Positions 22,043 through 22,579 of a stretch of DNA of 64,000 bases are shown here, in pieces. The first letter of the stretch is position 1; each line of letters begins with the position of its first letter. A program made the position numbers and the translations under genes. Under the pieces are notes generated by a model. The model searched no databases, had not been told where the DNA came from, and worked only from the letters and a program-made list of their open reading frames with translations. Source of the DNA: Octopus sinensis (lineage: Eukaryota); contig NC_043001.1 of the NCBI RefSeq assembly GCF_006345805.1, positions 4,898,001-4,962,000 of the forward strand, in the 5' to 3' direction.

Positions 22043-22575
22043 ATTACGTTATATAATTAGGGTTCAGTAAAATAAGTTACTTTACCACGCACCGAACTTT
22101 TAGAAATAGCAGCCAAAAAATCTTAGCTATTTCTTCTACTATAAGAAAAATCTCCCAGACAATGCATACTCAAAAATAACTCACTCAGGTATAGAGGGAA
22201 AAATAACGAAAGATCACACGTACATAAGATTACTTGAGAACGGCCGTTTCTGGATTAGTTGAATATAAAGATCAACATTTCCTTCGTCAGCTCAAAGATT
22301 TCTTTCGATTTGGATTTGAGAGCACTAAAAATCGAACATACCCGTCTGATATGAGTAATCCCAGACAAACCATCTTCGACCGCTAGTACGAATTCAAAAA
22401 GTACAAATGAGGCTTTGCATTCCTCCCACTTTCACCCATGTGAGTTATAGAGTAACACATTCCAATAGAGAGAACTGTAGTTTAATATCAGGGAGAGAGA
22501 ATTATATTATAGATATTTCTAAAAGTTCGGTGTGTGGTAAAGTAAATTCTTTTACTGAACCCTAATTATATAACG

Positions 22576-22579
<4 letters not shown>
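22043..22579 (-). mobile_element. 537-bp non-coding module with 66-bp terminal inverted repeats enclosing a hammerhead motif (PLE-derived, inferred)
   Basis: ATTACGTTATATAATTAGGGTTCAGTAAAA...CCGAACTTTTAGAAATA (22043-22108) is inverted at 22514-22579. The right end abuts (TA)n. Confidence 0.75.
22234..22295 (-). ncRNA. Type I hammerhead ribozyme motif, core intact
   Basis: Minus strand: TTGAG-CTGACGA-AGGAAATGTTGATCTTTATATTCAACTAATCCA-GAAAC-GGCC-GTT-CTCAA. Stem I TTGAG/CTCAA, palindromic stem III, GUU site. Confidence 0.8.

Follow-up and report, generated by a model that had tools for sequence, protein, structure and literature searches.

The locus at 22043-22579 of the window, the whole 64-kb stretch of DNA that was analyzed, has the outline of a MITE and carries a hammerhead ribozyme motif in its interior. 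It therefore raises the question of whether it moved as DNA or is the remains of a retrotransposon that only looks like a MITE. The best explanation, and in our judgment a probable one, is that positions ~21986-22579 are a non-coding, non-autonomous stub of a Penelope-like element (PLE) that mimics a MITE. This reading is preferred because of a tail on one side only, a fall in depth toward the 5' side, head-to-head junctions that vary among relatives, and a hammerhead with the traits of the PLE type.

Inverted arms and insertion site

The left arm (22043-22108, minus strand) and the right arm (22514-22579, plus strand) were identical at 63 of 66 positions in inverted orientation (95.5%, E 4e-25 in an alignment within the window), in agreement with the 66-bp inverted repeats of the first-pass annotation. 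The left arm corresponds to the 3' end of a presumed pLTR and the right arm to an inverted copy, lacking the tail, of the element's 3' end. The interior, described earlier as about 400 bp of non-coding DNA, measured 405 nt, and no Pfam family was found in the 12 frames covering 18500-26000. Elsewhere in the 64-kb window the element had no other significant match. The right arm adjoins a (TA)n-rich microsatellite (22580-22770, no strand assigned), which is the likely insertion target; that the right repeat stops at (TA)n was confirmed from the letters. Both arms end in TA, and a target-site duplication was unreadable in this copy, as the AT-rich and (TA)n flanks would hide one. The host genome appeared animal-like and rich in microsatellites.

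In being short and non-coding, with 66-nt inverted repeats and TA at the arm ends, the locus resembles MITEs. It could accordingly be read as a member of a true MITE subfamily, in which a PLE-derived or captured hammerhead segment lies between the 66-nt arms and moves as DNA into a TA target; the TA at the arm ends on both sides agrees with this, and we consider it very unlikely on the evidence given below.

A tail on one side only

Parts of the stretch were contained in 20 of the 24 sequencing runs listed, under four organism labels, and none of the runs contained half of its words. For the depth profile, the contigs of four of the 24 runs (X1, X4, X5 and X14, the last taken as an RNA run by guess only) were placed on 21630-22584 with a likeness cut-off of 80%. 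As depth summed over contigs does not give copy numbers, comparisons were limited to ratios within a run.

In all four runs the repeat continued ~45-57 nt to the left of the left arm. The depth at 22020-22037 was 153-169k in X4, 78-133k in X5, 6.2-8.1k in X1 and 1.25-1.49k in X14, and in X4 it was down to 7k in the bin 21950-21981. Five of the contigs listed (records 2, 12, 13, 18 and 25) bridged position 22043 with at least 31 letters on each side. Contig depth and bridging contigs thus define a 3' tail (21986-22042, minus strand), family sequence that is attached to the left arm and absent beyond the right arm. Its outer end is uncertain (21986-22000) and lies inside AT-rich, (AATT)-like repeats. 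The summed depth of both arms, read at 22076 and 22549 (3 nt off exact mirror positions), was 331k in X4, 211k in X5, 14.7k in X1 and 2.9k in X14, which gave an arm-to-tail ratio of ~2:1 within each of the four runs. A 22-nt pattern from the arm matched no locus in metagenome contigs and none in viral contigs.

The inverted repeats had been described as terminal, and this did not hold: by contig depth the element extends to the left as far as ~21986-22000. For a MITE, family sequence that continues left of 22043 means that the inverted repeats are not both termini, and one would have to take this copy, in which the tail of the family is joined to the left arm, for the founder of several copies. 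The proposal of a true TIR element with a captured ribozyme is therefore unsupported for this copy, given its non-terminal repeats and one-sided tail, and is improbable for a small subfamily that moves as DNA.

DIRS-like elements have inverted repeats with a 3' extension, and Helentron/DINE-like elements have subterminal inverted repeats, which in Helentrons are much shorter than 66 nt. An arm extended on one side and an arm-to-tail depth of 2:1 are compatible with both layouts, so that asymmetric ends built into an element of either class, with a captured hammerhead, would also produce what is seen. We hold this to be highly improbable. No internal complementary region of the DIRS kind was found, with 1114-1936 of 2000 shuffles scoring as well as the tail or outer arm against the interior, and both the variable head-to-head junctions and the PLE-type hammerhead described below would be unexpected in either class. 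The DIRS layout is described in PMC8969392, as far as its available sections go.

Toward the right interior, the depth dropped 100-fold or more in four of four runs, a drop to which divergence beyond the 80% cut-off may contribute. The segment next to the left arm (22109-22160, minus strand) was family sequence of high copy number, and in the contig tables its copies differed by many indels. At 22242, within the hammerhead, the depth was 2-4% of the arm depth (5,045 in X4; 9% of the arm depth in X14), and at 22432-22466 it was below 1% (230-746 in X4, 1011-1395 in X5, 92-123 in X1 and 13-18 in X14). The fall was interrupted by a partial rebound at 22302-22365. Most of the family depth thus sits in the 3' part, without the hammerhead. 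A difference of 100-fold or more between the left and the right interior speaks against a MITE, as the copies are not uniform and full-length, a minor subfamily perhaps apart.

Just left of the element, at 21694-21917, lies another high-copy repeat with two abundant blocks that are skip-joined in relatives. On the plus strand there, a hammerhead core has its 5' half completed in loose ends behind 21892. In X1 (organism A), a contig of single-copy depth covers 21729-22010, that is, the flank followed by 25 letters of the tail, which hints weakly that different organism labels have the insertion in common.

A hammerhead motif of the PLE type

The first-pass annotation had placed a minus-strand hammerhead at 22234-22295, and a type I descriptor matched there at 22296-22233 on the minus strand. 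Helix I consists of 6 bp (22296-22291 paired with 22238-22233), the core reads CUGACGA at 22290-22284 and GAAA at 22250-22247, and helix II is formed by 3 bp, a 3x3 internal loop and 5 bp, with an unpaired A before it and an extra A after it. Helix III with loop 3 is palindromic (22248-22239). Under the type I descriptor, cleavage is predicted after GUU, between 22239 and 22238. The core had been called intact. This is correct for its letters, which are complete, but the usual G10.1-C11.1 pair adjoining the core is absent; the base of helix II is instead either A·A (22283/22251) or a G-C pair with an extra A before G12. Because of the A·A, cleavage may be weaker in this copy.

Any descriptor match was found in 40 of 5000 dinucleotide shuffles of the interior. 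A helix I of at least 5 bp together with a helix II of at least 3 bp occurred in 2 of 5000 such shuffles, and a helix I of at least 5 bp with a palindromic helix III in none of 5000. With a simpler core pattern there was one match in the window where 0.04 were expected, and 4 of 100 shuffles matched. The Rfam search gave no hammerhead family here, neither at the gathering score nor at E <= 10. Elsewhere, a hammerhead pattern was found at 99 metagenome loci and in no viral contig; the 99 loci were dropped as relatives, having no blastn match to the element and meeting the full descriptor in 0 of 99 cases.

The computed active fold of the monomer (-7.3 kcal/mol) was less stable than an alternative fold at -11.4 kcal/mol, and the palindromes of two copies could pair into a 10-bp intermolecular duplex computed at -15.9 kcal/mol. 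By this modeling, cleavage would require a dimer joined through the 10-nt palindrome. Among homologs, 1 nt was lost at 22242 in 204 of 566 (X1), 1861 of 9201 (X5), 52 of 258 (X14) and 0 of 5045 (X4) by depth. Some homologs lack an intact hammerhead core, since among the variants listed the core position A13 read G in loose ends of X1 (four contigs) and X14 (two contigs).

The motif shows an extra base after A9, a long helix II and a palindromic helix III, traits that it shares with the metazoan PLE hammerheads described by Cervera and de la Pena (2014, PMC4209133). Unlike the hammerheads in the available sections of that paper, the one predicted here has an extra A before G12 (A·A at the helix II base) and a 3x3 loop in helix II. 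Against a MITE, the portions of PMC6431247 at hand mention hammerheads only for PLEs.

Further hammerhead-like motifs were seen elsewhere in the window. A second full type I match lies at 53915-53974 on the plus strand, with a helix I of 6 bp, a near-palindromic helix III and an A-U pair closing helix II; upstream of it there was no Pfam or PLE-profile match. A minimal PLE-type hammerhead without helix III lies at 41161-41132 on the minus strand and is followed by (TA)n ~110 nt later.

The interior is predicted to fold on the ribozyme strand

The minus strand of the 405-nt interior folded at -109.5 kcal/mol (z -3.45), and 0 of 200 shuffles folded as well. The plus strand showed no excess folding, with z -0.45 as RNA and z -0.13 as DNA. 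Among controls, 2 of 80 strand-windows reached z -3.4 (one true palindrome, on both strands) and 4 of 80 reached -3, so that the value is notable and not extreme. That only the ribozyme strand is predicted to fold suggests an RNA stage.

The predicted fold is a rod in which 22401-22461 pairs with 22161-22223, and from which an inner hairpin and the hammerhead branch off. Its 5' strand (22401-22461, minus strand), delimited by fold, alignment and depth, belongs to the low-copy part of the family; its 3' strand (22161-22223, minus strand) is a diverged inverted homolog of it, with 41 of 59 positions identical (0 of 5000 shuffles as good). The inner hairpin (22315-22398, minus strand) is imperfect, with 22 of 35 positions identical (0 of 5000 shuffles as good) and its apex at ~22350-22360. 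Between arms and rod, 22109-22160 and 22462-22513, both 52 nt long, were identical at 24 of 50 positions, which is not significant (848 of 5000 shuffles as good). The two halves of the element, 22043-22223 (181 nt) and 22401-22579 (179 nt), are colinear, with 95%, 48% and 69% identity from outside to inside. Judged by its sequence, the interior carries an older inverted duplication, and a single inversion event is insufficient because the arms are 95% identical outside and the halves only 48-69% inside. The much higher similarity of the outer arms, compared with the inner inverted segments, also speaks for the MITE subfamily considered above.

Transitions between the rod strands left 10 G·U pairs on the minus strand and 1 on the plus strand, and in the inner hairpin the ratio was 9:1 toward the minus strand. 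The bias to the minus strand was 19:2 overall (p 0.0002), and 25:7 when the unpaired middle was included (p 0.002). It did not exceed shuffles that keep the composition of each arm (1437 and 1524 of 5000 as good). Since the minus-strand fold was used to set the rod boundaries, and the bias also arises in shuffles with composition kept, it is suggestive only. A one-strand bias of 19:2 would be unexpected from transposition as DNA only, and in this respect too the locus departs from a MITE. A-to-I editing specific to this window was considered and found unsupported, the kinds of substitution being balanced (for example in X1, 18 C>T, 16 G>A, 16 A>G and 16 T>C).

A type I hammerhead on a free branch of a highly self-paired RNA of 350-400 nt resembles the folds of animal non-LTR retrozymes, in the part of PMC7229834 that describes them. 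The locus could thus be a retrozyme monomer, derived from a self-paired circular RNA that was processed by the hammerhead from tandem arrays and retro-inserted with the help of a PLE. In the accessible text of bioRxiv 10.64898/2026.07.22.740005, retrozymes are proposed to be PLE derivatives and monomers are frequent. Being non-coding and PLE-related, with a type I hammerhead and a self-paired RNA of similar size, the element is like the retrozymes of both sources; unlike them, it lies in no tandem array that could be seen and is flanked by inverted arms and a tail. The window contained no tandem unit, no head-to-tail joint was among the 15 of 27 joints listed, and most of the depth falls outside the hammerhead-bearing part. 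We regard this origin as quite unlikely.

Variable head-to-head junctions and one shared junction

Among the 15 of 27 joints listed, at least five other head-to-head joints were found in X4 and X5 contigs at depths of 37-62: 22060->22563, 22071->22521, 22118->22550, 22121->22172 and 22279->22417. A further one, 22072->22550, had a depth of 26. Single-copy contigs in these runs are ~35-60 deep, and these junctions, at least six in all, are near that depth. The sides of the joints, where given, were 20-38 letters long, several of them only 20-33. The variable inversion length that had been named as a mark of a PLE derivative is thus present in relatives, whose arms meet at different points. Junctions that vary among relatives, non-terminal repeats and interiors that differ 100-fold or more in depth set the family apart from MITEs.

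The element's own right junction behaved differently. The corresponding joint between opposite strands, 22101->22521, reached a depth of 1113 in four X5 contigs and 11 in X4, and one X14 contig spanned 22440-22553 at a depth of 9.6 of 13.3; among the joints listed, X1 had none. The spacer between rod and right arm (22462-22513, minus strand) therefore ends at a junction, 22513/22514, that other copies have in common. A right junction present in several copies in X5 and bridged by a contig in X14 is what a MITE would also show. Because this junction is common to several copies, being multi-copy in two runs, this copy is likely one of a small subfamily, at roughly 5-30x single-copy depth, with an old inversion in its RNA. 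The inverted arm is either part of the subfamily RNA or rebuilt at a fixed point, and the data fit both. No tandem or head-to-tail joint of the element was found in the window or among the 15 of 27 joints listed.

A PLE remnant in the same window

Linkage to an RT or GIY-YIG frame, likewise expected of a PLE derivative by the first-pass annotation, was not found in or beside this copy with Pfam or a PLE profile. No Pfam family was detected in 15 frames around this element and the hammerhead at 53.9 kb, and no frame of the element was among the best 60 matches (E <= 11) of a profile built from 70 PLE proteins. Matches of PLE proteins by tblastn at 22347-22288 (best E 0.15, from non-independent queries) were rejected, as they were not in the list of the profile search.

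A broken ORF of an unrelated EN+ PLE is located at 56986-58295 on the plus strand and covers the C-terminal half of the RT, the thumb and the GIY-YIG domain. A 59-residue piece of it found 70 proteins by phmmer, whereas a word-index protein search and an Atlas search with the remnant gave no matches. Among 10 of these proteins that were scanned, seven had GIY-YIG and five RVT_1, and the proteins aligned back to the remnant with E down to 2e-43. On this sequence evidence, the host genome carries EN+ PLEs. Within the window, there was no DNA match between the element and this remnant. A degenerate hammerhead-like core lies at 56877-56912, ~75 nt upstream of the remnant, and an imperfect palindrome of 140 nt (71%) at 56624-56763, ~110 nt upstream of that core.

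Proposed formation of the stub

According to the available text of PMC8557442, PMC8969392 and PMC3846280, PLE insertions are 5'-truncated, often have an inverted truncated copy at the 5' end, carry a tail of 30-40 nt at one end and use (TA)n targets. In vitro, the tail of a PLE lies between two start sites of reverse transcription, AT-rich DNA is favored for insertion and hammerhead cleavage is dispensable (PMC11167929, in the sections at hand). In the mechanism that we propose, the minus-strand RNA would be reverse-transcribed at a nicked AT-rich or (TA)n site, with the RT and the GIY-YIG endonuclease supplied in trans by an autonomous PLE. Two starts of reverse transcription, at ~21990 and 22043, would yield the tailed and the tail-less end. 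The result would be a hammerhead-bearing 3' end on the minus strand, tailed on its left side and followed on the right by an inverted copy that lacks the tail and adjoins (TA)n.

The features of PLE membership found here are 5' truncation, inverted truncated copies at variable breakpoints, a tail at one end and a type I hammerhead. As portrayed in the available parts of Arkhipova et al. (2013, PMC3846280), Craig et al. (2021, PMC8557442) and Frangieh et al. (2024, PMC11167929), EN+ PLE insertions share with this locus the inverted 5'-truncated copy, the one-end tail, the (TA)n or AT-rich target, the 5' truncation, the palindrome-like inside and the pLTR hammerhead. Unlike them, this copy has no ORF, its tail is 45-57 nt long instead of 30-40 nt, its inversion junction is common to several copies, as in a MITE, and a second, older inverted duplication forms a predicted rod on the ribozyme strand. 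The tail length and the constant junction count against the PLE reading. The earlier proposal of a solo pLTR plus inversion was thus supported as to a PLE pLTR with an inverted partial copy, and was incomplete in that it accounts neither for the occurrence of the right junction in several copies nor for the older inverted duplication of the interior.

The colinear halves with 95%, 48% and 69% identity, the one-strand G·U bias and the shared junction fit a more specific reading, namely a PLE-dependent subfamily with a viroid-like rod RNA from which a hammerhead branches off, and with a second arm made anew at the same fixed point in each insertion. This appears unlikely to us, as does its corollary, a retroelement with constant TIR-like ends that would mimic a MITE while moving through RNA. 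Under fixed-point rebuilding, the one-strand G·U bias would fit either selection for the RNA fold or A-to-I editing in the past. Against it, the plus strand as DNA folds no better than shuffles, and the sequences directly at the junction are not complementary. Should every copy rebuild its arm at a fixed point, the arms of one copy could be compared with each other and with those of other copies as a direct test of how the inverted ends of PLEs form, a process treated in the available portions of PMC3846280 and PMC11167929. The likely reading remains ordinary PLE debris, and it carries a warning for annotation, as MITE finders would call a DNA element and miss the tail.

Judged by titles and abstract openings, none of the papers found on hammerheads in TIR transposons or on cephalopod PLEs describes the family. 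PLE families have been reported in an octopus, in the part of PMC13282606 at hand, and the family may already be catalogued in the octopus repeat library of that paper (Zenodo). The pattern of a PLE stub with an inverted copy is a known one, to which the shared right junction and the predicted one-strand rod of the interior each add a twist.

Other repeats in the window

Several other mobile-element remnants and repeats were observed. A LINE-type RT remnant (RVT_1, E 4e-27) lies at 29612-31598 and a mariner HTH_48 remnant at 43733-44155, both on the minus strand. At 61085-62398, inverted repeats of 65 nt (95%) enclose a DDE_3 transposase remnant (61198-61584), forming a Tc1/mariner-type element. 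An imperfect palindrome of 180 nt (63287-63466, z ~-9 on both strands) is located between similar 24-nt direct repeats near 63261 and 63627. A tRNA match with a GUU anticodon (13748-13821, minus strand, 60 bits) lies beside a dispersed repeat family that is multi-copy in the window.
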